Below are positions 1 to 54,780 of a stretch of 64,000 nucleotides of DNA, in pieces (position 1 is the first letter of the stretch; the number at the start of each line of letters is the position of its first letter). The notes beneath the pieces are model-generated. The model was not told the DNA's origin. It made no database searches and worked only from the letters and a program-made list of their open reading frames with translations. The position numbers and the translations under genes are program-made. Location: NCBI RefSeq assembly GCF_044324875.1, contig NZ_CP172185.1. The stretch is one strand, 5' to 3'. This DNA comes from Escherichia coli. Lineage in GTDB: Bacteria; Pseudomonadota; Gammaproteobacteria; Enterobacterales; Enterobacteriaceae.

Positions 1-807
1 GAAGGTGATGGCCATTATGATGGCGTAGACAAGGTAGTTTTGACCACCACTGAACTGGCTTTCAACGAACTCACGACCAGCACTGATCGCCATGATCAGA
101 TAAATCACCATCATCGTAAGAGAAATAGAGATGGAACTGTCGCGCAGGAAGCTCAGATTTTTGGGCAAATTCATCTCTTCGGTGGAGCGGGAACCTTTAC
201 CGCACACGCTGCCAATCCAGCCAGAAAGTACATATCCCAGAGTGCCAAAGTGACCAAAAGCAATGTCATCATTCCCCGTAATACGCTTCATATAGCGTTG
301 TGCTAATGCCGGGAAAAATGCCATCACAAGTCCCAGAATAAGAGAACCGGTAAAGACCAGTGATATACCTTCAAAACCAGCCACTGTCAGAATCACACCA
401 ATCATGCAGGCCATGTAAAATGTGTGGTGTCCGGTCAGGAAGATATATTTAAGGCGGGTAAAGCGGGCAACAATAATATTCGCCACCATACCAAATGCCA
501 TAATAAGGGCCGTCGATGCGCCATATTTTTCCAGCGCAATAGAAACAATAGCCTCATTATTCGGAATGATGCCCTGAATATTAAAGGCATGTTCAAACAT
601 ACTCCCAAGAGGATTTAACGAACCAACCAAAACAGTGGCACCACCGCCCAGTACAATAAAGCCGAGAATAGTTTTAATTGTACCTTTAACAACATCTGAA
701 AAAGATTTTTTCTGGGCAACCAGACCAATTAAGGCAATCAAGCCGACCAGTATCGCGGGCACTTTAAGTATATCAACAACAAAATTCAGCGTTTCAAGGA
801 TAAACAT
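1..807 (-). CDS. PTS ascorbate-family EIIC permease (UlaA/SgaT-like), 5' part only; gene continues past window start
   Basis: Manual reverse-strand translation from ATG at 807-805 gives MFILETLNFVVDILKVPAILVGLIALIGLV..., membrane protein resembling UlaA N-terminus; GAGGTGG SD upstream; gene lacks a Met-started complete ORF in the window. Confidence 0.7.
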   Translation of the reverse strand, partial: MFILETLNFVVDILKVPAILVGLIALIGLVAQKKSFSDVVKGTIKTILGFIVLGGGATVLVGSLNPLGSMFEHAFNIQGIIPNNEAIVSIALEKYGASTALIMAFGMVANIIVARFTRLKYIFLTGHHTFYMACMIGVILTVAGFEGISLVFTGSLILGLVMAFFPALAQRYMKRITGNDDIAFGHFGTLGYVLSGWIGSVCGKGSRSTEEMNLPKNLSFLRDSSISISLTMMVIYLIMAISAGREFVESQFSGGQNYLVYAIIMAITF

Positions 808-829
808 ATCCACCTCGCTTCAATTAAGG

Positions 830-1102
830 TTATTGTTTTGCTAACCAGTTACGCAGTTGCGTTTCGAGTTCATTAATATCAATGATGTTGTTGATAACCA
901 CCAACTGACTTTCCGGTACGCTGGCACTGGCAGCAATATCTTTGGCCATCACAAATAAATCGGCAGCCCCTGGCGTTGCTGATGAGAGATCGGAATGTTC
1001 CACTTCCGCCTCTATATCCATTTTTTTCAGAACTTTTTTAATATTCATTTCGACCATAAAACTACTACCAAGCCCTGAGCCACAAATAGCCATAATTTTC
1101 AT
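830..1102 (-). CDS. PTS EIIB component (UlaB/SgaB-like)
   Basis: ORF 830..1150; MKIMAICGSGLGSS matches the EIIB phospho-cysteine loop; start trimmed to the MKIMA codon. Confidence 0.7.
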   Translation of the reverse strand: MKIMAICGSGLGSSFMVEMNIKKVLKKMDIEAEVEHSDLSSATPGAADLFVMAKDIAASASVPESQLVVINNIIDINELETQLRNWLAKQ

Positions 1103-1180
1103 TATATTCACCATTTTAAGTTGAAGAAGTCCCATCACGCAACGGCGCAATGTTGTGAAAAGACTGAATTTATAATGTAA

Positions 1181-1630
1181 TCAGAACCGTGAAATTATCT
1201 TTTTTATTTCCTCCACATTGCGAGCCTGATGCAATTCATGTAAATCTTTTTCGCTGGAGAATAACTCAGCCAGTGCAGATATCATTTCGATATGACTGTG
1301 TTTGTCTGGTGCGGCAAGTAAAATGATAACATCTACAGGATCAAATTCCTCTGTATGAAAACTGACACCTTCTTCAAGTTTTAATAATGATAAACCTAAT
1401 CCTTTTGCCCCTTCTTCTGGTCGGGCATGCGGCATGGCCAGCCCGGGTGCCAGGACATAATAAGGCCCCAGTTTTTCATGTTGTGTCTTTATCGCACTGA
1501 GATAATCCGTCGTAATTATCTCTGCATCCAGTAACGGTCTGGCACAGATATCTAATGCCTGCTGCCAGGTTGCGGCATTCTTTCGTAATGCGATTGTTGA
1601 ATCAGAAAGCCAGATATTAAGCACTCCCAC
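1181..1630 (-). CDS. PTS EIIA component (UlaC/SgaA-like)
   Basis: ORF track 149 aa with GPYYVLAPGLAMPHARPEEG motif typical of ascorbate-type EIIA; apparent GTG start. Confidence 0.7.
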   Translation of the reverse strand: MGVLNIWLSDSTIALRKNAATWQQALDICARPLLDAEIITTDYLSAIKTQHEKLGPYYVLAPGLAMPHARPEEGAKGLGLSLLKLEEGVSFHTEEFDPVDVIILLAAPDKHSHIEMISALAELFSSEKDLHELHQARNVEEIKKIISRF

Positions 1631-1881
1631 CCCCTAATTTCTTATTTATATGACCAGAATGTATTCAAGTAACGACGGTATATCTGCGATCAATATCACA
1701 AAGATAGCGCTATCAGGAGGTATTGTTCGAATTTGTGATAGCGCTATCAAAATAGATTTCACTGATTAAATCCAGACTTATGGCAGATATTAAGAGGTAT
1801 ACTCTGCTACTGGCAGTGCAGGAAGCCGTTGATGATAAGTAATAAAAGATCTCCATATGTAGTCGCTGAGCAGGATTTTGT

Positions 1882-2901
1882 ATGGCAATAACCCGAAAAC
1901 GTCGTAGTACAGGTAAAGTCACTATTGCTGATGTCGCGCAACTCGCGGGAGTTGGCACAATGACTGTATCCAGAGCGTTACGCACTCCCGAACAAGTTTC
2001 AGATAAATTGAGGGAGAAGATTGAAGCCGCAGTTAATGAATTAGGGTATATGCCCAACCTCACTGCAAGCGCACTGGCATCGGCATCTTCACACACGATC
2101 GCAATGGTCGTGCCAAACCTGGCTGAAGCGGGATGCACGGAAATGTTTGCCGGGCTGCAACATGTGCTACAACCAGCGGGGTATCAAATAATCCTGGCTG
2201 AGTCACGCCATCGTCTGGAACAAGAAGAAAAACTGCTGGAAACCCTGCTGGCTTCTAATATCGCTGCAGCAATTTTGCTTAGTGTTGAGCATAATAGTAC
2301 CGTGCGTCACTTGCTCAAAAATGCCTCGATTCCTGTTATAGAAATCGGTGCCATTCGTACTGATCCGATAGATATCAACATTGGTATTGATAATGTTGCA
2401 GCAATGTTCGAGCTGACGGATATGCTGGTACAACGTGGTTATCAGAATATCGGTTTGCTATGCGCTAACCAGGAACAGTGGATCTTTCAGCAGCATTTAC
2501 AGGGATGGTATAAAGCTATGTTACGCCATCATATGTCTCCCAACCGTGTTATTAACGCTGCTCTGCCACCTGTTTTTTCCACCGGAGCATCACAACTACC
2601 GGAATTTTTGCTCGCATGGCCGGAACTGGATGCCCTGGTATGTGTGTCAGATGAGTTAGCCTGCGGTGTTCTCTATGAATGTCAACGAAGACGGATCAAA
2701 GTTCCAGACGAGCTCGCCGTAGTAGGATTTGGTGACAGTGACGTCAGCAAAGTTTGCCAACCATCATTAACAACAATGGCCGTTCCTCACAGGAAAATTG
2801 GTCTGGAAGCAGGAAATGTTTTGCTGGAACGAATTAAAGAAGGTAACTGGAGCAATCAGATATTCATTGAGCCCTGTTTATGTTTACGTGAAAGCTGCTG
2901 A
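1882..2901 (+). CDS. LacI/GalR-family transcriptional regulator
   Basis: 339 aa; N-terminal HTH VTIADVAQLAGVGTMTVSRAL, periplasmic-binding-like C-terminal domain; divergent from the PTS genes. Confidence 0.85.
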   Translation: MAITRKRRSTGKVTIADVAQLAGVGTMTVSRALRTPEQVSDKLREKIEAAVNELGYMPNLTASALASASSHTIAMVVPNLAEAGCTEMFAGLQHVLQPAGYQIILAESRHRLEQEEKLLETLLASNIAAAILLSVEHNSTVRHLLKNASIPVIEIGAIRTDPIDINIGIDNVAAMFELTDMLVQRGYQNIGLLCANQEQWIFQQHLQGWYKAMLRHHMSPNRVINAALPPVFSTGASQLPEFLLAWPELDALVCVSDELACGVLYECQRRRIKVPDELAVVGFGDSDVSKVCQPSLTTMAVPHRKIGLEAGNVLLERIKEGNWSNQIFIEPCLCLRESC

Positions 2902-3702
2902 AGCTGGGGGACTGGTATCTTTCAGCTCACTGATTTTGTTGCTGAACCTGATATATCCTTCGGTTTTCCACAACCAGGGGAAGGGTGTCATCATAAGGCG
3001 TGATGACACCCTGAATTCCCATCCTGTATCTGCAGAAAATTTTTCGTAAATAAATTAATTTAATAACTAAAAAGAAAATACAATAAGCAAAATATCAATT
3101 ACAGCATGTTCGTTTGTTTAAAGAACCTGCTGGTCCTGCCATTAATATTACCTGCTGATTGCTTCACATCCGGATTCCTCGCACTGCGCGCGGGTTATTG
3201 TTTCGTTTTCGGCCACGGGGTCGCCAGGGCTCTGTTTGCAGGCCATGATGGCCTGACCTGTACTGTTTCTCAGGCACTGAGATGTCCGTTTACGCCATTT
3301 GTTCCCGGATATCCTTAACCTCTGACGTTTGTTCCCTGCCCCTCTGTCTGATAACGAATACGCTCACAACGCACAGTACTGAACAATACCGACAACAACA
3401 TGTCTTACATGAAATTCGCTGTAACATCCACCGGAAAACATTTTCAGATATCGGATGAGGTACTACTTCCATTGACAGCGCGAGGTAACAAAATTGATGG
3501 TAACTCTGACCATTAACCGTAAACCGCAGGGTATTTTCAGTAAATCACCGGCAACGCCGCTGCAGGATAAAACGGACACAGCATACAAAATGAAGGCCGG
3601 TGACCAGATACCACAGTTGAACGATAAACAGAAACCTGCTGATAAAACACCGTGGCGACATGACAAAACGCCAGAGCAAAAACCGTAAGCGCATTATTCG
3701 TC

Positions 3703-4005
3703 TTGTGGAACTCTGGCCTGAGTCATTCAACCGGGAAAAAAACAAAACCACTTAAAGTGGGGATACCTGACGACCTGATACAGGATATCGCCATCCGAGA
3801 ACTGGCGTTTGGCGCTGGTACATTACATGCAGCAGTGGCGTCTTATGTGCAGTCTCCGTGCTATTACCGTGCGTTAATAGCAGGTGGCGCCCGTTACAAC
3901 CTGAACGGTCAGCCGTGCGGGGAAGTGACACCACAGGAACAGAAAGAGGCAGAGACCCGTTTAATGATGCTGAATGACCGACGAAAAGACAGAAAACCTC
4001 GTTGA
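3703..4005 (+). CDS. FinO/ProQ-like RNA-binding domain protein (possibly frameshifted with upstream ORF 3494..3688)
   Basis: KPLKVGIPDDLIQDIA...YNLNGQPCGEVTPQEQKEAETRL resembles the ProQ N-terminal FinO domain (RPLKIGIFQDL...DLDGNPCGELDEQ); track start is TTG. Confidence 0.4.
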   Translation: MWNSGLSHSTGKKTKPLKVGIPDDLIQDIAIRELAFGAGTLHAAVASYVQSPCYYRALIAGGARYNLNGQPCGEVTPQEQKEAETRLMMLNDRRKDRKPR

Positions 4006-4022: not shown

Positions 4023-4619
4023 TCACTGAGCTGTAATCAATGTACAGCGCTGTACCGGGCGATGGGTAATACCGGTCACAACCGGTAACCCCAGAGACAA
4101 TGCAACTGTTTTTAACGCAATATACTGGCCGGATGTATCACCCCGGGCAGCCTGAAAACACCTTTCCACCCGGCATTGTCCGTCAGCACTTATCACCCGC
4201 CATGTCTGTTGCAATAAATCCACCCGTTGCGAACATTCTTCATCAACCGTGGCACTGACCCGTGGATGGCAAATGCTCGTCTGGCTGAGCAGCAACAGGC
4301 ATCGCATTGTTGCTCCTCCATGTTGTTCCCGCAACCAGCGTAATACCACCGGTGGTGCTGGACTGGCCGTGTGATTACGTTCAGTAATACGCTCGTGCAC
4401 CTGTCGGTAAAAGGAAGTACAGAATGCATGAATCTGTTGTCCGTTGATGTTTCCTTCTGCCGAATGGAGCGTGAAGTGAAATGCCAACAGATTTGGCCAG
4501 TGGTCCACCGCCTGCTGAACAAAACGCCGGATTTCCCCCGGCGCTGAAAGTAAGGCTTCGGTTATTTGCACTATTTTATCCCCGTTGAATTTTGTTAAGC
4601 CGGTGCAGACCAGACACAC
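4023..4619 (-). CDS. Inovirus Gp2-family (YagK/YfjJ-like) protein, paralog 1
   Basis: 198 aa; same overall architecture as the two downstream paralogs (LAFHFTLH ... MRCLLLLSQT). Confidence 0.45.
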   Translation of the reverse strand: MCLVCTGLTKFNGDKIVQITEALLSAPGEIRRFVQQAVDHWPNLLAFHFTLHSAEGNINGQQIHAFCTSFYRQVHERITERNHTASPAPPVVLRWLREQHGGATMRCLLLLSQTSICHPRVSATVDEECSQRVDLLQQTWRVISADGQCRVERCFQAARGDTSGQYIALKTVALSLGLPVVTGITHRPVQRCTLITAQ

Positions 4620-4848: not shown

Positions 4849-5085
4849 TCATGCTGCTGCTCCTCGTGATTCCTCAATTCGCTGCTGCATCCACTGCTCC
4901 ACTTCACTTTTGTACCAGCGGCTGCTGCGCCCCAGTTTGATGGGTTTAGGGAAATGGCCTTCACTGATCAGCTTGTAAAACCATTTGTCGGTCATACCAG
5001 TGAAGCTGGTGATGTAGTTCATGTCGATCAGGGGATCGTCGGCACGCAGCAATACGCTGTCGTGACCTGTCATTGAGGTCAACAT
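4849..5085 (-). CDS. alpA: AlpA-family phage/island transcriptional regulator
   Basis: 78 aa; MNYITSFTGMTDKWFYKLISEGHFPKPIKLGRSSRWYKSEVEQWM is the AlpA HTH signature. Confidence 0.8.
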   Translation of the reverse strand: MLTSMTGHDSVLLRADDPLIDMNYITSFTGMTDKWFYKLISEGHFPKPIKLGRSSRWYKSEVEQWMQQRIEESRGAAA

Positions 5086-5153: not shown

Positions 5154-5756
5154 TCAGAGCTGGCCTGCTACGGGATACCAGGGATTACCGGCGAGGTAAC
5201 GGGCTTCCGGATCGCGCACACCACGACGATCGCGGGCGAAATCACTGAACGCCCATATCAGCTCTTTGAGTCTCTCTTCGCAGTCCGGTGAACAACTGTC
5301 CAGCACCACATCCCGGGTTATCTGTTTCTGGTACGGTGCTGCTTCACCCGGTGACGCGAAGCCCAGTACGTTGCTCCAGGCATCCAGAATCAACCGGTCC
5401 AGCTCAGGGCCGTCGAAATATTCCTGTCTGACGCACAGCACCACGTGGTATTCCGGTTTTTCAGGATGACGGGTCAGGAGCCAGCAGAGGTCGCGTCCGG
5501 GGGTTGCATTCATCAGCGCACTGACGGTTTCGATAAAGGCCATACCGAACCAGGTTTTTCTGTCGCTGAAGATGTTGCCATGTTCCCCCGGCAGACGAAG
5601 CAGGATCCGCCGTATCCTGGAGCCGGACTGCTCGCGCAACACACGGTTGAGAACGCCGATGATTTTGTTCTGATAAGATGGCCAGAAGGGCGCCATGCTA
5701 TAGTCGAAATAAGGGATAGCATTCATAAGATATGTTCCGTTATACGCAGCCCACAA
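5154..5756 (-). CDS. Inovirus Gp2-family (YfjI/YagK-like) protein, paralog 2
   Basis: 200 aa; island backbone position immediately after alpA. Confidence 0.55.
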   Translation of the reverse strand: MWAAYNGTYLMNAIPYFDYSMAPFWPSYQNKIIGVLNRVLREQSGSRIRRILLRLPGEHGNIFSDRKTWFGMAFIETVSALMNATPGRDLCWLLTRHPEKPEYHVVLCVRQEYFDGPELDRLILDAWSNVLGFASPGEAAPYQKQITRDVVLDSCSPDCEERLKELIWAFSDFARDRRGVRDPEARYLAGNPWYPVAGQL

Positions 5757-6082: not shown

Positions 6083-6814
6083 TCACCTGCCATCCAGCAG
6101 ACGCCCCGGCCCACGACTGCAACCATAATTACGTTGCCCGGAACCGTCATGCTGCTTCGTCTCATATTTCACGAGATAACTGGCTCTGTTCCGGGCTTTC
6201 TGCAGCGCTTCCACATCACCACGCTTGATCCAGAGAACAGCGGCTTCACCCGGCTTTTTTTCTGAAGCCTTCCTGGTATCAGAACATCCACCCGACAAAG
6301 GCGTGTCATCGGAAGAAGGGCGAGCATCAGACGATGCTGGTTTACGGGAAGGCGTCCACCTGGAAAAATGGACCAGGCCATCGCCTTGCCAGGCCTCAAG
6401 ATGCAGGGCGCTGCACCATGCCTCCAGGATCATCGTCGCCAGCGAAGATGGTTCGCTGAAATCCCCTGGCGAGCACCAGGTATCTTTGTTGAGCAGCAAT
6501 ATCACGTGATAATGTTTCCTGCCTTTTTCCTTGCCAAACTCCCGACACCAGAAATAACGCAGAGTGGTTGCACGCACACGCTTGTTGGCACGTCGTTTTT
6601 TCCGCTGGTAAGCCTGGATTTTGGCTTTCAGGGATTCGAAAAAACGAGAAATCACCGCTGAATCCGGATCGGGATCCATGATGGTGACAGGCATATACTC
6701 AGGGAAACGTAAATCCACCCGGATTAACGAGACGGCACGGTGCTGCGACAGGGCACTGTCGAGAAGGCTGTCAAAACGGGATAACCAGTAAGCATTGTGT
6801 ATTGGTTGATTCAT
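6083..6814 (-). CDS. Inovirus Gp2-family (YfjJ/YagK-like) protein, paralog 3
   Basis: 243 aa; LIRVDLRFPEY ... HYHVILLLNKD pattern. Confidence 0.6.
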   Translation of the reverse strand: MNQPIHNAYWLSRFDSLLDSALSQHRAVSLIRVDLRFPEYMPVTIMDPDPDSAVISRFFESLKAKIQAYQRKKRRANKRVRATTLRYFWCREFGKEKGRKHYHVILLLNKDTWCSPGDFSEPSSLATMILEAWCSALHLEAWQGDGLVHFSRWTPSRKPASSDARPSSDDTPLSGGCSDTRKASEKKPGEAAVLWIKRGDVEALQKARNRASYLVKYETKQHDGSGQRNYGCSRGPGRLLDGR

Positions 6815-6849: not shown

Positions 6850-8390
6850 ATCATTAATCACCGCGGTAAAACTTTACGGCATCATGTCATTAAGCAATGC
6901 TACAACTCTCTGATTAAGAGTGATTGAAACGGAACAAACCATCCCGGAACGAAAAGATAATCCTGCACACAGCAGCAAAACACGCAACAACAGCATGAAT
7001 GGATTTAAAAACGACATGGACGACGAGAAAAGCCTGAAGGGAAAAGGATCCACAGAACATTCGAACAAAACACCAGAAACGCAACCAGAACGCTTCCTGG
7101 CAATGCAAATCAACAACAACGCCAAAACCTACAGCTTAATCACACAACTCAATCACGAATGCGAATGACACGTTTAAAACCTGTTTACAGATAACGCCGT
7201 AACACGATCATCCCCATCACCATCAGAATCGATTTTCTCATCCCGAAAATGTTACGTTTCACTACGCACCATAAAAACGATTAACCATCGATAACGTAAA
7301 TCTCATCTGAATCAAAAAACCAAAACCAATCATCACACTTTCGCAATGCAAGAAGAAAAACCACATCATGACGAAAACAATGACCTTACATGAAAAAGCA
7401 AAACGTCAGGAATCGTTAATGCCTCAATCTGATTGTTATCAAAACATCCAGAAAGTCGTTTAACAGAATCGTCGTAAGCACATCGAAAAGAACGTCAGAT
7501 CACCTCAGGAAAGTTCGGGTTGATTTAGCGTAAAGATACTTTTCTCAGCTTAACGTCGAAACACAAACCAAAAACCACAAACAACCAAAGCTCAGGAAAG
7601 GTTAAACGTCACATCAGTAAAATCGAATAGCAGATTGATTGCTTAAACAGGAAAGATTGTTTTACAGCAGCATTAAACTGATTTAGTTAACGTAAAATCA
7701 GAACTGACAGGTTTACTAACTTGGATGTGTATCAGTTCAAAAATGTGTACAGCAATGCGTAATGAAACACATTTAAAGGAGATTAATGGGAAAAGTGTGT
7801 AAATGCGTAAACATGCACTAATGAATCACTGAAGGAATACATACAAAACGACTTAATGAAAACATAAAAGGACCTAATGGAAAAGGTGTATATAATACCA
7901 TATCCGACATTCTCAACATCTTAAGACATCCATGCAGACTGAATGTTGGTTTCAGTTTTTCACGGTAAGCATGAATCTTTTCTGTTCAAAAGCAGAGCAG
8001 ATTTACTCTGGAATTATTTTTCTTACTCCGTATTCTGTACAGCAAAAACTTGTGCTAACTTTACAGCAAACCATCATAATCAGCGTCTGTAGTCCCATCG
8101 CTTTACCCCATGAAAGTGAATCCATATGATGTGAGAGAGATAAGTCATCGTATCCGGTAAACACTGCTTACTATAACATAAGATCATTCAGTCAGTTTTA
8201 TCTCTGAACTGACGATTATGGCATGCTCATTTATATGGCTCACAGAGGAGTGTTATTATCCGTAAGCTTTAATCATCAAATCACATGACCATACCAAACT
8301 GGCGCTATATCAGCTCATTTGACGCTCATTCCCTTTAGATTTCTTTATGTGTTTTTTGTCGATAATTAAAATGTAATATAAATTTAATAT
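6850..8390. other. About 1.5 kb ORF-poor, strand-skewed (A+C-rich top strand) intergenic region with recurrent short motifs
   Basis: No ORF of 60 aa or more on either strand between about 7170 and 7930; recurring AACGT(C/A)A..ATC, TCAGGAAAG and TAATGRA motifs. Confidence 0.6.
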
Positions 8391-8397
8391 TTTCACA

Positions 8398-9621
8398 TCA
8401 TAAACACCATTTAAAACCATCATCCTGAACATCATACAACAATATATTTTTACTAAAGCATGAATTGTATATTTCTATTAATTCAGGAAAATTATCAGGA
8501 TTCACCTTTAAATTCAACTGAATGTTACACTTAATTTCACTCAGCAGTTCTTCATGCGTGGATTTTATTATCCCTTTATCATAATCTATAAATACACACA
8601 TGTTTTTCATGAATTCAAACCCTTTTCCTGTATACAGTTTGATGAATGCCACAAGAGCAAACATTTCAAGATGCAGCCATAATGCCACGTGAGTTTTTCG
8701 CAAAGTATAAAAAATTGAATTCGCCACTTTTTTACTTATTGCTCTTTTGTACTGTGAGTGCGCCAGATTCAGTAGTGGCAATTCTCTCTCGATAAATGAA
8801 AGTGAAAAAGGCGGGTAAATTGATGTCGGAAATATTTCAGGTCTTATGATATTTTCGATTTCCACCATAAATCTATCCATAGAACGAAAATCATTTTCTT
8901 TTTTTATTCTGGTATAGAGACCGCCTTTATTCCTTACTGCGACTTTTTTTCGTGCTATCCCCCCCAACATTTCCTCTAATTGTTTATTTATCTTCGTATC
9001 ATTAAATACAACCATTCTTCTTATCATCCTGGGAAGGATGATAATATCAGAGCTTGAATCACTTGAACGGCAATTATTATTGATCCATGCAACTTCAAGT
9101 TGAAGTATCGGAACATTAAATTCTCTGGGGTTAATAACTCTCTGATATTGTTTTTTGTATGCGTTTTCATTAAGATATTCTCTGCTGTAGAGAAACTTAT
9201 AGCAATATAATCTGACAATATCCTTTATGTAAGATTTAAATGAGTCACCTGTAACAGATATATTTTTTCTTCTCAGTAACTCCTGTGTATTGAGCCATTC
9301 CCGTGACCGGAGTACTCCATTATGAAGACTTTTTCTTACTTGCTTTGAATTGCGCAATTGATGTAATATTTTTGCGTCCTCAACAATTCTCTTTCCCGTT
9401 TGATTTCTTGCAGCATCTATTACTCTGTCAAATATCTCCCGGTCCAGACTTTTGTCATATTTACTGATTATACGACAAATATTCCTGACCCGACGGTTCT
9501 CTTTATTTCGTTTCCATAACTGATAATGATCATCACATAACCTCAGGGCATTTGCCTCATCAAATTCTGAAACAGGATTGCTGCATTTTTTATTCCGACA
9601 GATACCTTTGTTTTTAGCCAT
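8398..9621 (-). CDS. Hypothetical protein, 407 aa, low-GC orphan
   Basis: Long ATG-initiated ORF with purine-rich SD; Lys/Arg/Asn-rich; N-terminal Cys-x4-Cys ... Cys-x2-His; no family recognised. Confidence 0.6.
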   Translation of the reverse strand: MAKNKGICRNKKCSNPVSEFDEANALRLCDDHYQLWKRNKENRRVRNICRIISKYDKSLDREIFDRVIDAARNQTGKRIVEDAKILHQLRNSKQVRKSLHNGVLRSREWLNTQELLRRKNISVTGDSFKSYIKDIVRLYCYKFLYSREYLNENAYKKQYQRVINPREFNVPILQLEVAWINNNCRSSDSSSDIIILPRMIRRMVVFNDTKINKQLEEMLGGIARKKVAVRNKGGLYTRIKKENDFRSMDRFMVEIENIIRPEIFPTSIYPPFSLSFIERELPLLNLAHSQYKRAISKKVANSIFYTLRKTHVALWLHLEMFALVAFIKLYTGKGFEFMKNMCVFIDYDKGIIKSTHEELLSEIKCNIQLNLKVNPDNFPELIEIYNSCFSKNILLYDVQDDGFKWCL

Positions 9622-9721: not shown

Positions 9722-10606
9722 ATGTCATTCAGCCATTCTTCCCTCTCCGCACACGTAAAGTCACATCTGACCTTTCTTCCTGAAGAAATTCGCCAGAAAA
9801 TCCTTGAACATCTTCGCAGCGTCATTCAGTACGAACCCGTTATTGGCATTATGGGTAAATCCGGTGCCGGAAAAAGCAGCCTGTGCAATGCCATTTTTCA
9901 GTCCCGTGTCTGCGCCACGCATCCGCTGAACGGCTGCACCCGTCAGGCTCATCGTCTTACCTTTCAGCCCGGTGAACGAAGAATGACGCTGGTCGATCTG
10001 CCCGGCACTGGCGAAACACCACAGCATGATCAGGAATACCGGGCACTTTACAGTCAGTTACTGCCCGAACTGGATCTGATTATCTGGATCCTGCGGGCTG
10101 ATGAACGTGCGTATGCTGCCGACATCGCCATGCATCAGTTTTTACTGAATGAAGGTGCCGATCCCTCGCGTTTTCTGTTTGTTCTCAGCCATGCCGATCG
10201 CATCCACCCGGCTGAAGAATGGAACAACCAGAGCAGCACGCCATCCCGTCAGCAGGAACTCTCACTGGCGACGGTGACAGCCCGGGTGGCAACCCTGTTC
10301 CCTTCATCATTTCCGGTACTCCCCATAGCCGCTCCTGCCGGCTGGAATCTTCCGGCATTTGTGTCTCTGATGATCCACGCCCTGCCACCACAGGCAACCA
10401 GCGCGGTTTATTCGCATATCCGGAATGAAAAGCGCACTGCGCAGGATCAGCAACACGCACAGCAGGCTTTTGGTGACGCCATCGGCCAGAGTTTTGACGC
10501 TGCCATTGCCCGGTTCAGCTTTCCGGCCTGGATGCTGCAGCTTCTGCGCAAAGCCCGTGATCGCATTATCCGCCTGCTGATCACACTGTGGGATCGCCTG
10601 TTCTGA
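9722..10606 (+). CDS. YeeP/YfjP-family GTPase (50S ribosome-binding GTPase-like)
   Basis: 294 aa; P-loop GIMGKSGAGKSS and DLPGTGE switch motif. Confidence 0.85.
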   Translation: MSFSHSSLSAHVKSHLTFLPEEIRQKILEHLRSVIQYEPVIGIMGKSGAGKSSLCNAIFQSRVCATHPLNGCTRQAHRLTFQPGERRMTLVDLPGTGETPQHDQEYRALYSQLLPELDLIIWILRADERAYAADIAMHQFLLNEGADPSRFLFVLSHADRIHPAEEWNNQSSTPSRQQELSLATVTARVATLFPSSFPVLPIAAPAGWNLPAFVSLMIHALPPQATSAVYSHIRNEKRTAQDQQHAQQAFGDAIGQSFDAAIARFSFPAWMLQLLRKARDRIIRLLITLWDRLF

Positions 10607-13643: not shown

Positions 13644-14012
13644 GTGTCAGACACACTCTCCGGGATAACTCATCCCGACGACAATCACGACCGCCCCTGG
13701 TGGGGGCTTCCCTGCACAGTGAGGCCCTGTTTTGGCGCCCGTCTGGTGCAGGAGGGTAACCGCCTGCATTACCTTGCCGACCGCGCCGGCATCAGAGGCC
13801 GGTTCAGCGATGCGGATGCATACCATCTGGACCAGGCCTTTCCGCTGCTGATGAAACAACTGGAACTCATGCTCACCAGCGGTGAACTGAATCCCCGCCA
13901 TCAGCATACCGTGACACTGTATGCGAAGGGGCTGACCTGCGAAGCCGACACCCTCGGCAGTTGTGGTTACGTTTATCTGGCTGTTTATCCGACGCCCGAA
14001 ACGAAAAAGTAA
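13644..14012 (+). CDS. Type IV antitoxin, CbeA/YeeU/YfjZ family
   Basis: 122 aa, near-identical to recalled YeeU (MSDTL.G.T.PDDNHDRPWWGLPCTV...TPETKK). Confidence 0.9.
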   Translation: MSDTLSGITHPDDNHDRPWWGLPCTVRPCFGARLVQEGNRLHYLADRAGIRGRFSDADAYHLDQAFPLLMKQLELMLTSGELNPRHQHTVTLYAKGLTCEADTLGSCGYVYLAVYPTPETKK

Positions 14013-14102
14013 ACCACCGGAATAACCTTCTGCTCCGGCCAGGTGTTTTCACCACGCCACTCTCCCCATAATTTAATCTCTCATATCAGGAAAATCTTCA
14101 GT

Positions 14103-14513
14103 ATGAAATTATTACCCGACACACATGTACGGGAGGCATCGTGCTGCCCGTCTCCCGTCACCATCTGGCAGACACTGCTCATCCGTCTGCTGGACCAGCA
14201 CTATGGCCTCACACTGAATGACACACCGTTCGCTGATGAACGTGTGATTGAGCAGCATATTGAGGCCGGCATTTCACTGTGCGATGCGGTGAACTTTCTC
14301 GTTGAAAAATACGCACTGGTACGTACCGACCAGCCGGGATTCAGCGCAGGAGCCCCGTCGCAGTTAATCAACAGCATCGATATTCTCCGGGCCCGCCGGG
14401 CAACAGGCCTGATGACACGTAATAACTACAGAATGGTAAATAACATTACCCTGGGTAGCATCCGGGGGCGAAACGATGAAACTTTCCCTGACGCTGGAAG
14501 CCGACAGCATTAA
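14103..14513 (+). CDS. Type IV toxin, CbtA/YeeV/YpjF family
   Basis: Start trimmed to MKLLPDT; [67 protein letters not shown] matches YeeV. Confidence 0.85.
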
Positions 14514-14982: not shown

Positions 14983-15768
14983 ATGTCATATATCACAATC
15001 CCCCACCCGAACGCGGTCAACGGACATACAGCCGTTATCTGTTCCACAAGTATCAGACACATCCTGGCTGTACGAAAGAGTACACTGCTGCAAATCGACA
15101 CGCTTATCCGGCAACTGACAGAAATCTCAGCACTGACGGAAAGTATTGGCGGTAAAGCCGCCCCGGACTGGGCCATGAAACAGGATTTTCGCTGTGGCTG
15201 CTGGCTGAAGGAGAAACAGGAAACCGCAATGAAAGCCATTACCCGGAATCTTGACCGCGAAATCTGGCGTAACCTGATGCAGCGTTCCGGGATGCTTTCC
15301 TTAATGGATGCACAGGCACGTGATACATGGTACAGGTCACTGGAATATGATAATTTTCCGGAAATCAGTGAAGCGAACATTCTGAGCACATTTGAACAAC
15401 TGCACCAGAATAAGGATGAAGTGTTTGAGCGGGGGGTGATCAACCTCTTCAAAGGGCTGAGCTGGGATTACAAAACCAACTCACCCTGTAAATTTGGCAG
15501 TAAAATTATCGTCAACAATCTGGTGAGGTGGGACCAGTGGGGATTTCATCTTATCAGTGGAATGCAGGCAGATCGCCTGGCTGACCTGGAAAGAATGTTG
15601 CATCTGCTCAGCGGTAAACCGATCCCCGACAACCGGGGAATATCACCATTAATCTGGATGACCACATACAGTCCGTTCAGGGTAAAGGACGCTATGAAGA
15701 TGAGATGTTCATCATTAAATACTTTAAGAAGGGAGCTGCACACATCACTTTCAAAAGGCTGGAGCTGA
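14983..15768 (+). CDS. Hypothetical protein, last gene of the island (possibly DUF4942-like)
   Basis: 261 aa ATG-initiated ORF; family assignment from memory is tentative. Confidence 0.5.
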   Translation: MSYITIPHPNAVNGHTAVICSTSIRHILAVRKSTLLQIDTLIRQLTEISALTESIGGKAAPDWAMKQDFRCGCWLKEKQETAMKAITRNLDREIWRNLMQRSGMLSLMDAQARDTWYRSLEYDNFPEISEANILSTFEQLHQNKDEVFERGVINLFKGLSWDYKTNSPCKFGSKIIVNNLVRWDQWGFHLISGMQADRLADLERMLHLLSGKPIPDNRGISPLIWMTTYSPFRVKDAMKMRCSSLNTLRRELHTSLSKGWS

Positions 15769-15935
15769 TTGACAGAATTAACGATATAATAGCCAGGCAC
15801 TTTCCTTCTGTGCTCTCAGCCTGACCCCGAGTTTGATTCCCTTTCGATATCAAAAGGGACTGCGGGTACAAAAGAGGGTACATCTTTCACCAAACCAAAC
15901 AAAATAAACCAATATCAACACGATAGAAGCATTCT

Positions 15936-15957
15936 TCGATTCCGAGTCCGGCACCAA
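15936..15957 (+). repeat. 3' fragment of tRNA-Phe (pheU attachment-site remnant)
   Basis: TTCGATTCCGAGTCCGGCACCA matches the pheU 3' end (one G fewer); upstream sequence does not match the rest of the tRNA. Confidence 0.7.
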
Positions 15958-45236: not shown

Positions 45237-46328
45237 ATGCGTTTTCTGCGCCGACCAATATCGCTGCGCCAACGGCTGATATTGACCATTGGGGCCATTT
45301 TGTTGGTGTTTGAGCTGATCAGCGTCTTCTGGCTATGGCATGAAAGTACCGAGCAGATTCAGCTGTTTGAGCAGGCGCTACGCGACAATCGCAACAACGA
45401 TCGCCACATCATGCGTGAGATCCGCGAGGCGGTCGCCAGCCTGATCGTCCCCGGCGTCTTTATGGTCAGCCTGACGCTATTTATCTGCTATCAGGCGGTA
45501 CGCCGCATCACCCGGCCGCTGGCGGAGCTGCAAAAAGAGCTGGAAGCGCGCACCGCCGACAACTTAACGCCTATTGCCATTCACAGCGCCACCCTCGAAA
45601 TCGAAGCGGTGGTTTCGGCGTTGAACGATCTGGTCAGTCGCCTGACCAGCACGCTGGATAACGAAAGGTTGTTTACCGCTGACGTCGCGCACGAACTGCG
45701 AACGCCACTGGCGGGGGTGCGTTTGCATCTGGAACTGCTGGCGAAAACGCATCACATTGATGTAGCACCGTTAGTGGCTCGACTTGATCAGATGATGGAG
45801 AGTGTCTCCCAGCTGCTGCAACTGGCGCGTGCCGGACAGTCATTTTCTTCCGGGAATTATCAACATGTAAAACTGCTGGAAGATGTCATTCTCCCCTCGT
45901 ATGACGAACTCAGTACCATGCTCGACCAGCGACAGCAAACCCTGCTATTGCCAGAGAGCGCCGCCGACATCACCGTTCAGGGTGATGCAACCCTGCTGCG
46001 GATGTTATTGCGAAACCTGGTAGAAAACGCCCATCGTTACAGCCCGCAAGGCAGCAACATTATGATTAAGCTGCAAGAAGATGGCGGAGCGGTCATGGCC
46101 GTTGAAGATGAAGGACCGGGTATTGATGAGAGTAAATGCGGGGAGTTGAGTAAAGCGTTTGTACGTATGGACAGCCGTTATGGCGGGATTGGTCTGGGGT
46201 TAAGTATTGTCAGCCGCATTACACAGTTGCATCACGGGCAGTTTTTCCTGCAAAACCGGCAAGAGACTTCCGGCACGCGGGCCTGGGTACGGCTGAAGAA
46301 AGATCAGTACGTGGCAAACCAGATATAA
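45237..46328 (+). CDS. basS: Sensor kinase BasS (PmrB)
   Basis: Track start is TTG at 45228; first ATG at 45237 gives 363 aa. Confidence 0.9.
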   Translation: MRFLRRPISLRQRLILTIGAILLVFELISVFWLWHESTEQIQLFEQALRDNRNNDRHIMREIREAVASLIVPGVFMVSLTLFICYQAVRRITRPLAELQKELEARTADNLTPIAIHSATLEIEAVVSALNDLVSRLTSTLDNERLFTADVAHELRTPLAGVRLHLELLAKTHHIDVAPLVARLDQMMESVSQLLQLARAGQSFSSGNYQHVKLLEDVILPSYDELSTMLDQRQQTLLLPESAADITVQGDATLLRMLLRNLVENAHRYSPQGSNIMIKLQEDGGAVMAVEDEGPGIDESKCGELSKAFVRMDSRYGGIGLGLSIVSRITQLHHGQFFLQNRQETSGTRAWVRLKKDQYVANQI

Positions 46329-46393
46329 AGAAAGCTGCTGACCACCAGCACGCTGAACACGGTAGTTAAACTTTCATAAACACGGTTTTTCAT
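46304..46393 (-). CDS. pmrR: PmrR, 29-aa membrane peptide; not in ORF track
   Basis: Manual translation MKNRVYESLTTVFSVLVVSSFLYIWFATY; 3' end overlaps the basS 3' end convergently. Confidence 0.8.
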   Translation of the reverse strand: MKNRVYESLTTVFSVLVVSSFLYIWFATY

Positions 46394-46504
46394 TGCACTC
46401 TCCTCCGTTAACCTGGAGGAGAGTATGCGCGTCAGAGATTAAGTGAACCTTAAGACTTCAATTGGCCTGATAAGACAGCGTCACATCAGGCCATCCGTTT
46501 CAGC

Positions 46505-48007: not shown

Positions 48008-48270
48008 AGCTTTCCTCGCAGAGTTGGCCCATTTCCGCAAACGCCAGAAAAATCAGCGCGACGGCCGCAAAAGGGGAGCGGGAATTGCAGGATGCAATCT
48101 CTGTAACAAGCGTAGCGGGTTTGCTTACACCCTCCGGTTAAGGAATGTACAATCAAACCAGTTGACGCCTGAATTGGGCAGTTAATGACCTTTTTACCCT
48201 ACCAGTGTTTAAATTTGTGATCAACTTCACATATGGATTTCGTTTAGGACTCATTGATGTAACTGATTAT

Positions 48271-52114: not shown

Positions 52115-52210
52115 TATTGTGATCGGTAAGCCGGATAAGGCGCTCGCGCCGCATCCGGCAACGATGCCGACAGCCTGATGCGACGCTGACCGCGTCTTAT
52201 CAGGCTTCCC
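52115..52210. repeat. REP/BIME-type extragenic palindromic element
   Basis: GCCGGATAAGGCGC...GCATCCGGCA and GCCTGATGCGACGCTG...CTTATCAGGC motifs. Confidence 0.6.
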
Positions 52211-54679: not shown

Positions 54680-54780
54680 GTAAGTCGGATAAGACGCCAC
54701 GGCGTCGCATCCGACAATGTGCAGACGTTGATGCCGGATGCGGTGCAAGCACCTTATCCGGCCTACAGACCGGAGCCAAA
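54680..54780. repeat. REP element between phnD and phnE
   Basis: GTCGGATAAGACGCC...GCGTCGCATCCGACA and GCCGGATGCGGTGCAAGCACCTTATCCGGCCTAC. Confidence 0.6.

Follow-up and report, generated by a model that had tools for sequence, protein, structure and literature searches.

A six-gene phosphotransferase-transketolase sugar operon carried on a pheU island of Escherichia coli and its Salmonella orthologue

Introduction

What is the sugar-uptake module at the left edge of a 64-kb stretch of E. coli chromosome (hereafter the window), native ulaABC locus or island cargo, and what could it do for its host? A preliminary description, made from the sequence alone, had proposed a horizontally acquired ascorbate-type phosphotransferase system (PTS), a paralogue of the ula system with its own divergent LacI-family regulator, cut by the window edge, with catabolic genes, if any, beyond it. 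We found that positions 1-2901 hold those two thirds of a horizontally carried six-gene sugar operon that lie nearest its regulator. The module is cargo of a pheU island and the orthologue of a Salmonella locus, and in our judgement it is very probable that the whole works as a repressor-controlled PTS-transketolase operon. RefSeq already annotates it in over a hundred complete genomes, and the paper on PAI I5155, the IMT5155 island, makes mention of it (PMC4232414). The operon is genuine and intact, though of an ordinary kind.

Results

Gene content of the module

All four genes were found where the preliminary description had placed them (Table 1), and all reading frames were intact. The first 3300 positions of the window had 100% identity to many complete E. 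coli chromosomes, which carry the same four genes in their RefSeq annotation. Domain matches agreed with the proposed ascorbate-type PTS, with EIIC, EIIB and EIIA encoded by separate genes. The EIIC gene, whose translation begins MFILETLNF, does run off the left edge, so that codons 1-269 of 462 lie inside the window. The full-length copy, in a locus identical to window 1-3300 (L001:19419-20807), matched PF03611 (EIIC-GAT) over profile positions 1-394 of 394 (E=4e-153), and EIIC matched the solved UlaA structure 4RP8 across residues 13-398 (E=4e-51). The active-site, phospho-accepting Cys7 of EIIB was aligned to Cys9 of UlaB (CGSGLGSS against CGNGQGSS), and His66 of EIIA, within the motif LAMPHARPEEG, was aligned to His68 of UlaC.

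The proposed divergent LacI-family regulator was also present, with two palindromic candidate operators in the shared intergenic region. A profile search assigned its PF00356 HTH domain to residues 14-59, together with PF13377 and PF00532. The protein is GntR/IdnR-like, and its closest solved structure was 3H5O, a GntR-named LacI-family regulator. In the comparison with named families, gluconate and idonate regulators were nearest, with every score under the cut-off.

Table 1. Positions of the module features and of the right island boundary in the window
Feature	Position	Strand	Basis
EIIC gene, SgaT/UlaA (L-Asc) family, 5' part	1..807	-	PF03611, start ATG 807-805
EIIB gene, 90 aa	830..1102	-	PF02302 E=9e-17, RefSeq annotation
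EIIA gene, 147 aa, GTG start	1181..1624	-	PF00359 (PTS_EIIA_2) E=3e-34, RefSeq annotation
-10-like hexamer TACATT of proposed CRP-dependent promoter (inferred)	1658..1663	-	
CRP-like site TGTGATATTGATCGCA	1685..1700	-	one mismatch to TGTGA-N6-TCACA
Candidate operator O2, TGATAGCGCTATCT, LacI-type palindrome, central CG, 13/14 positions symmetric	1702..1715		
Candidate operator O1, TGATAGCGCTATCA, perfect 14-bp palindrome	1736..1749		sequence symmetry, conservation
LacI/GalR-family regulator, 339 aa, divergent	1882..2901	+	PF00356 and Peripla_BP domains
Terminator-like hairpin directly after regulator stop codon	2902..2927	+	consensus match only
pheU 3'-end repeat TTCGATTCCGAGTCCGGCACCA, one G missing, right island boundary	15935..15956	+	BLAST against K-12

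Split transketolase beyond the left edge

In identical copies in other genomes, the operon extends left into a split transketolase of N and C subunits, followed by an IS/transposase remnant. These two subunits, and nothing else, are the catabolic genes that had been suspected beyond the window start. They carry PF00456, PF02779 and PF02780 (N, pyrimidine-binding and C-terminal domains), and the closest structure was 6YAJ, the split transketolase of Carboxydothermus (E=1e-70). By alignment, the equivalents of TktA H26, H66, H100, D155, E160, N185, H261, E411 and H473 are kept, and in the N subunit the thiamine-diphosphate, Mg and catalytic His residues are conserved. The canonical substrate-contact motif THxG...GEDGxSHQ, with TktA His461 and Asp469, was absent, and ASDAGVAACHNGGTHM was found instead (His to Asp, Asp to Asn). 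This C-subunit variant, SDAGVxAxHNGGTHM as against canonical THAG...GEDGxSHQ, was also found in Salmonella, Serratia, Rahnella and Niallia, and is the mark of a large split-transketolase subfamily in diverse sugar-catabolic clusters. With two substrate-contact positions non-canonical, it is uncertain whether the enzyme simply serves the pentose phosphate pathway. When the C subunit was aligned with TktA by MAFFT, the result was unreliable near Arg358 and Ser385, and both are excluded from the residue claims.

Comparison with the native ula locus

Identity of the module proteins to UlaA, UlaB and UlaC was 29, 27 and 40%, respectively, which is below the orthologue level. Neither ulaG, ulaDEF nor UlaR was found at the module, whose neighbours are the split transketolase, IS remnants and island backbone genes, and no native ulaABC locus was seen upstream in the extended copies. 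Low identity, different neighbours and a different position thus rule out the native locus, and the identity values together with the differing neighbours and regulator uphold the view of the module as a distant ula paralogue. Like the module, E. coli ulaABC (sgaTBA) encodes a three-protein EIIC/EIIB/EIIA system of the same transporter family, with the conserved EIIA His and EIIB Cys. However, the gene order is A-B-C in the module and C-B-A in ulaABC, the regulator is LacI-type instead of the DeoR-type UlaR, and the linked enzyme is a transketolase, whereas ula is linked to a lactonase, a decarboxylase and epimerases. The module is accessory, while the K-12 ula genes occupy a separate chromosomal locus between yjfP and yjfY. 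Moreover, the module EIIC belongs to a different NCBIfam equivalog from UlaA: against NF009549 (cut-off 890) it scored 990 bits and genuine UlaA scored 176 bits, which indicates that the name 'ascorbate' is an annotation transfer.

Candidate operators and promoter in the shared intergenic region

O2 is the O1 palindrome with one mismatch, and the two candidate operators lie 34 bp apart, centre to centre. They are the only matches to the palindrome in the 64 kb, against a chance expectation of 0.26. Both were unchanged across E. coli, Salmonella, Serratia and Rahnella, in intergenic regions that average 53% column identity. The CRP-like site was by itself not above chance in the 64 kb; its position is conserved in the four genera, and its centre would fall at -41.5 from the predicted start of transcription, near position 1651. 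A TAnAnT hexamer follows it after 21 nt in E. coli, Salmonella and Serratia, and after 22 nt in Rahnella, which is class-II spacing. The palindromes, the adjacent CRP-like site and the -10-like hexamer suggest a repressor-controlled, catabolite-sensitive promoter. Just as possible is a different sigma-70 match, whose -35 lies within O1 and whose -10 falls between O1 and O2.

Island location and distribution in E. coli

Homology to K-12 (yjdQ, cadC and onwards) begins exactly at the pheU repeat, and K-12 itself has pheU-yjdQ-cadC without the island. Measured from this right-end repeat, the module lies about 13 kb inside the pheU-associated island. Owing to its 1-nt deletion, the repeat gave no match in a search that allowed mismatches only. 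Among the island backbone genes, AlpA, YagK/YfjJ, CbeA/CbtA and DUF4942 are in the window, and the integrase and intact pheU are outside it. No tRNA gene was found in the 64-kb window, and its first 17 kb matched no Rfam family. The pheU 3'-end repeat, the missing K-12 counterpart and the mobile-element backbone genes confirmed that the module is island cargo, as had been proposed.

The whole module was present in 132 of 5426 complete E. coli genomes. Any trace of it was detected in 366 genomes, and 234 of these keep only a 179-bp transketolase-gene remnant, which shows that the module is dispensable. In strain Ch1, IS1 stands in place of the module, and another strain has an ISVsa5 element within it. 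No plasmid carriage was found in E. coli, and Salmonella matches to a '500-kb plasmid' look like chromosomal pieces. In E. coli the module is accessory cargo of a pheU island that occurs chiefly in extraintestinal strains from birds and humans.

Related loci in Salmonella and other bacteria

Salmonella, Serratia and Rahnella carry this six-gene set in their core chromosomes beside pta-ackA, with gene order and orientation unchanged. The module is the orthologue of a Salmonella locus that, judged by gene order, is STM2340-STM2345 (STM2340/41 being TktC and STM2345 PagR). Amino-acid identity to Salmonella was 88% for the regulator (UniRef Q8ZND1_SALTY in the compared locus), 72% for EIIA, 94% for EIIB, 92% for EIIC, and 89 and 86% for the N and C subunits of the transketolase. 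O1 is identical in the two species, and the positions of O2, the CRP-like site and the -10 are conserved. The E. coli copy sits on the pheU island, whereas in Salmonella the genes lie in the core chromosome, next to pta-ackA and between yfcC and yfcD; in E. coli K-12 the yfcC-yfcD gap is 32 bp and this site is empty. The GC content of the E. coli module was low, at 45.8%. Since DNA identity between the two modules was only 68-83%, and GC3 was much lower in E. coli (0.36-0.46) than in Salmonella (0.54-0.66), Salmonella was not the direct donor.

STM2345 has been identified as PagR, a LacI-family regulator (PMC12413039, PMC7808427). In Salmonella, PagR is reported to activate SPI-2 genes. Salmonella TktC, to go by the title of Shaw 2018 (cited in PMC12651746), is a third, functional transketolase serving the ordinary pentose phosphate pathway.

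In Gram-positive bacteria, the ula2 operon of S. pneumoniae (ulaR2-ulaB2-ulaA2-tktN-tktC) likewise joins L-Asc-family EIIB and EIIC genes to those for the transketolase N and C subunits and, like the module, holds no other catabolic enzyme (PMC4324149). The same EIIB-EIIC-TK-N-TK-C core and layout, again with no other enzyme, was found in Niallia. The Gram-positive version uses a PRD/EIIA-containing activator, with EIIA fused to the regulator, whereas the module has a LacI-type regulator and a free-standing EIIA. Of these operons, the pneumococcal one alone has been shown to respond to ascorbate, with an induction of only 2-3-fold (PMC4324149). On Pantoea megaplasmids, a related PTS with a GntR-type regulator occurs without transketolase.

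Two other accessory sugar-metabolism loci of pathogenic E. coli were compared and set aside. The tkt1 island of APEC O1, 16 kb long and flanked by metE and ysgA, is a different locus; it also encodes a transketolase-like protein, here a single chain (PMC3349570). The c3405-c3410 genes (PAI-metV) of extraintestinal E. coli encode a maltose/glucose-type PTS at a different locus (PMC2831201). A set of RpiR, MalX-like PTS and NanE genes, similar to c3405-c3410, was observed in IMT5155, some 8 kb farther to the left, and is a separate unit. A literature search for the 'aec-35/37' sugar genes of PAI I APEC-O1 gave nothing usable.

Discussion

Proposed working of the operon

We propose that the LacI-family protein most likely represses the operon by binding at O1 and O2 (TGATAGCGCTATCA), just upstream of, and abutting, the putative CRP site of what would be a class-II-type promoter. 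A sugar or sugar-acid derivative may release the repressor. The derepressed operon would then supply EIIA, EIIB and EIIC of an L-ascorbate-family PTS, in which EI and HPr would relay phosphate from PEP to His66 of EIIA, from where it would pass to Cys7 of EIIB and finally to the substrate during import by EIIC. The two-subunit transketolase, encoded just past the window edge, would connect the import of carbon with the non-oxidative pentose phosphate pathway. Since PagR is reported as a SPI-2 activator in Salmonella, the regulator may do more than repress its own operon.

What this operon would import, and how the transketolase would use it, could be read in other ways. One is that the operon is a second L-ascorbate uptake system, whose ascorbate-6-P would be converted to D-xylulose-5-P by native UlaG/UlaDEF, the transketolase only adding pentose-phosphate capacity. 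The transporter family shared with UlaA, the RefSeq name of EIIC ('PTS ascorbate transporter subunit IIC') and the ascorbate-induced pneumococcal operon of EIIB-EIIC-TK-N-TK-C content (PMC4324149) speak for it. We nevertheless think it unlikely, given the low EIIC identity to UlaA, the separation of the two by NF009549, a LacI/GntR-like regulator in place of UlaR, the absence of linked ulaG/ulaDEF homologues in every genus examined, and the weak pneumococcal induction. Somewhat better placed, though still doubtful, is a self-contained two-step route, in which the PTS product would be the direct donor for a specialised transketolase with an altered substrate pocket that turns a ketose or related sugar into central metabolites. 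The PTS and split transketolase are kept as a unit from Firmicutes to Enterobacterales, under different regulators and with no other enzyme, and this points to such a route, as do the replaced equivalents of TktA His461 and Asp469 in a C-subunit motif typical of a large subfamily in diverse sugar-catabolic clusters. Against it are the ordinary pentose-phosphate role announced for TktC in the Shaw 2018 title and the Pantoea plasmids that hold a related PTS without any transketolase. A literature search on apulose-phosphate transketolase found nothing.

A different reading would make the module decaying, functionless cargo, and the many genomes reduced to the 179-bp remnant, the insertion elements in or in place of the module in two strains, and the IS remnants on its flanks would fit. 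It is highly improbable all the same, as every reading frame is intact, the sequence is fully identical across many unrelated complete genomes, the phospho-site residues and the N-subunit cofactor, Mg and catalytic His residues are conserved, and the operators match those of the core-genome orthologues.

Implications

There has been some work on the Salmonella orthologues, on TktC as a transketolase and on PagR as a regulator. Should the two-step route prove true, these members of the family would carry a mistaken 'ascorbate' annotation. In extraintestinal E. coli from birds and humans, an orthologue of PagR, which is reported to control Salmonella virulence genes, travels on an island and could affect regulation or fitness.

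Gene content of the module

The preliminary description had proposed an EIIC/EIIB/EIIA phosphotransferase system (PTS) with a divergent LacI-family regulator, and both content and coordinates proved right, far beyond chance, by ORF listing and Pfam searches. EIIB matched PTS_IIB (PF02302, E=9e-17), EIIA matched PTS_EIIA_2 (PF00359, E=3e-34), and the regulator carried the LacI HTH (PF00356) and periplasmic-binding-like domains. EIIC matched EIIC-GAT (PF03611, E=4e-153) when the complete protein of an identical genome copy was searched. GC content of the module was 45.8%. Positions 1-3300 recurred with 100% identity in numerous complete E. coli chromosomes, for which RefSeq gives the same four genes, and every base matched the copy in APEC IMT5155.

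Catabolic genes, if any, had been expected beyond the window start. They are present in IMT5155 as a split transketolase and nothing else: EIIC is followed, with overlapping stop and start codons, by the N-terminal subunit (276 aa) and the C-terminal subunit (317 aa), and then by a transposase remnant. IMT5155 has another accessory sugar unit, distinct from the module and ~8 kb to its left (L001 9333-12568), which is similar to the c3405-3410 genes of PAI-metV. It encodes an RpiR regulator, a PTS IIC of the maltose/glucose type and a ManNAc-6-P epimerase, and is separated from the module by a gene for a YadA-like adhesin and by several IS remnants.

Features of the module and of its island (window positions)
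Feature	Position	Strand	Remark
EIIC gene	from ATG at 807 past left window edge	minus	269 of 462 codons inside; ORF listing and translation
EIIB gene	1102-830	minus	90 aa; ORF listing and translation
EIIA gene	1624-1181	minus	147 aa, GTG start; ORF listing and translation
TAnAnT hexamer	1658-1663		21 nt after CRP-like site (22 in Rahnella); in all four genera
CRP-like site TGTGATATTGATCGCA	1685-1700		directly downstream of O2; one mismatch to CRP consensus
O2	1702-1715		predicted operator; one mismatch; 34 bp from O1 centre-to-centre
O1 TGATAGCGCTATCA	1736-1749		predicted operator; perfect palindrome
Regulator gene	1882-2901	plus	339 aa; ORF listing and translation
Terminator-like hairpin	2902-2927		directly 3' of regulator gene
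ProQ/FinO	3703-4005		island backbone
AlpA	4849-5085	minus	island backbone
YagK/YfjJ	6083-6814	minus	island backbone
GTPase	9722-10606		island backbone
CbeA/CbtA type IV toxin-antitoxin pair	13644-14012, 14043-14513		island backbone
DUF4942	14983-15768		island backbone
pheU 3'-end copy TTCGATTCCGAGTCCGGCACCA	15935-15956		22 nt, one G missing (1-nt deletion); right end of island

A pheU-associated island

According to BLAST against K-12, homology to that genome begins at 15935, inside the pheU 3'-end copy, after which the order is that of K-12, with the remnant of the yjdQ integrase and then cadC (~16.0-16.5 kb). From ~16 kb on the window is core E. coli chromosome (cadCBA, dtpC, lysU, dcuSR, fumB, melAB, adi, eptA, proP, phn); this part also holds Rfam matches to the sRNA STnc630 and two naRNA4 elements, with coordinates listed as 46297-46462, 52129-52206 and 54683-54763, and a perfect CRP consensus, TGTGATCAACTTCACA, at 48216-48231. 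ARAGORN found no tRNA gene in the 64-kb window, which places intact pheU and the integrase beyond the left edge. The stretch of 3.1-15.9 kb is a typical CP4-57-like island backbone, in which the ORFs at 4023-4619, 5154-5756 and 8398-9621 had no match in the Pfam search. An AT-rich stretch (7000-8400, ~35.5% GC) separates the YagK/YfjJ gene from that of a 407-aa protein without domain match; it has no ORF of at least 90 aa and no Rfam family match. The pheU repeat and the backbone genes together bore out the earlier reading of the module as island cargo, placing it in a pheU-associated island ~13 kb from its right end.

Of 5426 complete E. coli genomes, 132 carried the full module with at least 99% identity, in every case on the chromosome; many of the listed carriers were chicken or poultry isolates, and others came from humans. 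A deletion form was commoner than the intact module, with 234 further genomes of that set holding no more of it than a 179-bp remnant of its transketolase C gene. In strain Ch1 (L002 8059-8986) this remnant lies directly against an IS1, and both PTS and regulator have been lost. Two described loci are different from the module: the tkt1 island, with a single-chain transketolase at metE-ysgA (PMC3349570), and c3405-3410 of PAI-metV, with a maltose/glucose-type PTS (PMC2831201).

Orthologues in other genera

Protein search placed relatives of the EIIC, with 83-93% identity, in Salmonella, Leclercia, Serratia, Rahnella, Gibbsiella, Pantoea and other genera, and cluster members were also present in Citrobacter, Kosakonia, Yokenella, Klebsiella and Enterobacter. 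Salmonella, Serratia and Rahnella have the identical six-gene set in the same order and orientation, at a conserved core-chromosomal site between yfcD/GST genes and (yfcC) pta-ackA. In E. coli K-12 the yfcC-yfcD gap is 32 bp, and this is the empty ancestral site. The Salmonella locus is, from its gene order, presumably STM2340-STM2345. Protein identity between E. coli and Salmonella was 88% for the regulator (compared with UniRef Q8ZND1_SALTY), 72% for EIIA, 94% for EIIB, 92% for EIIC, and 89 and 86% for the transketolase subunits. DNA identity was only 68-83% and GC3 much lower in the E. coli genes, indicating a different donor lineage, of lower GC. According to Shaw et al. 2018 as cited in PMC12651746, STM2340/41 encodes TktC, a third transketolase. 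The product of STM2345, PagR, is a regulator of the LacI family; low Mg2+ and low phosphate induce it, and it is reported as an activator of SPI-2 genes (PMC12413039, PMC7808427, PMC12351708). Megaplasmids of Pantoea, such as pVag1 of Pantoea vagans (L011 6886-10236), have a related EIIA-EIIB-EIIC set (~70% DNA identity for EIIC/EIIB); unlike the module, it has a divergent GntR-family regulator and no transketolase.

Regulatory region

Within the divergent intergenic region of 257 bp a LacI-type palindrome with CG at its centre occurs twice, as O1 and O2, which were its sole matches in the 64-kb window (0.26 expected by chance). When the intergenic regions of E. coli, Salmonella, Serratia and Rahnella were aligned, O1 and O2 formed an almost invariant block in sequences that are hard to align elsewhere (mean column identity 53%). 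The CRP-like match, by itself not significant in the window, was kept in all four genera. Centring at -41.5 is the class-II geometry of CRP promoters, and the spacing from the CRP-like site to the hexamer would centre CRP at that position. This conserved spacing suggests a catabolite-sensitive promoter, at which repressor on O2 would occlude the activator site, with O1 as a putative auxiliary operator. A sigma-70 match whose -35 element lies inside O1 is an equally possible alternative promoter.

Transketolase variant and possible functions

The transketolase keeps cofactor, metal and catalytic His positions, and its C subunit (L001 17646-18599) has ASDAGVAACHNGGTHM (SDAGVxAxHNGGTHM) in place of the canonical THAG...GEDGxSHQ of the solved split transketolase 6YAJ and of human and E. 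coli transketolases, which puts Asp in place of His461 and Asn in place of Asp469 (TktA numbering). The enzymes of Salmonella, Serratia, Rahnella and Niallia share the variant, which also marks a large split-transketolase subfamily in diverse sugar clusters. In clusters L015 and L016, for instance, variant-motif enzymes are accompanied by DeoC-type aldolases, dehydrogenases and ABC transporters.

The native ulaABC locus was ruled out: identity to K-12 UlaA/UlaB/UlaC was 29/27/40%, the module lacks the UlaR (DeoR type), ulaG, ulaDEF and yjfP-yjfY position of the K-12 locus, and the sequence left of the window edge in IMT5155, where native ulaABC might have been revealed, holds the split transketolase. 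Phospho-relay residues of UlaB/UlaC are kept (EIIB Cys in CGSGLGSS, EIIA His in LAMPHARPEEG), and homology of EIIC to UlaA of known structure extends across ~390 residues; from these conserved domains and residues, the PTS proteins would work by the standard phospho-relay.

Most probably, the module is a PTS under repressor control that supplies the pentose phosphate pathway via its own transketolase. The same EIIB-EIIC-transketolase N and C core, with no other enzyme, is found in the Firmicute Niallia, there controlled by a PRD/EIIA activator, and in the S. pneumoniae ula2 operon (PMC4324149). Induction of ula2 by ascorbate, 2-3-fold (PMC4324149), would fit a second ascorbate system, which we consider unlikely here; family model NF009549 (cut-off 890) is the source of the name 'PTS ascorbate transporter subunit IIC', and since the module EIIC scored 990 bits on it and genuine UlaA 176 bits, the ascorbate label is a transferred annotation. 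The nearest named families of the regulator were gluconate and idonate repressors, all scores being below cut-offs, and this kinship is a weak hint at an effector resembling a sugar acid. A dedicated route in which PTS and transketolase together serve some ketose is less likely than not, but somewhat likelier than the ascorbate reading, and a generic pentose-phosphate booster is a further possibility.

The finding is real, and its first interpretation as an island-borne PTS with a LacI-family regulator is supported. The operon, annotated and noted before and with partly characterised orthologues, is ordinary island cargo. To this the present analysis adds the identity of the missing genes, the orthology to Salmonella TktC/PagR with the empty ancestral site in K-12, the predicted conserved operator/CRP architecture and the non-canonical transketolase motif.
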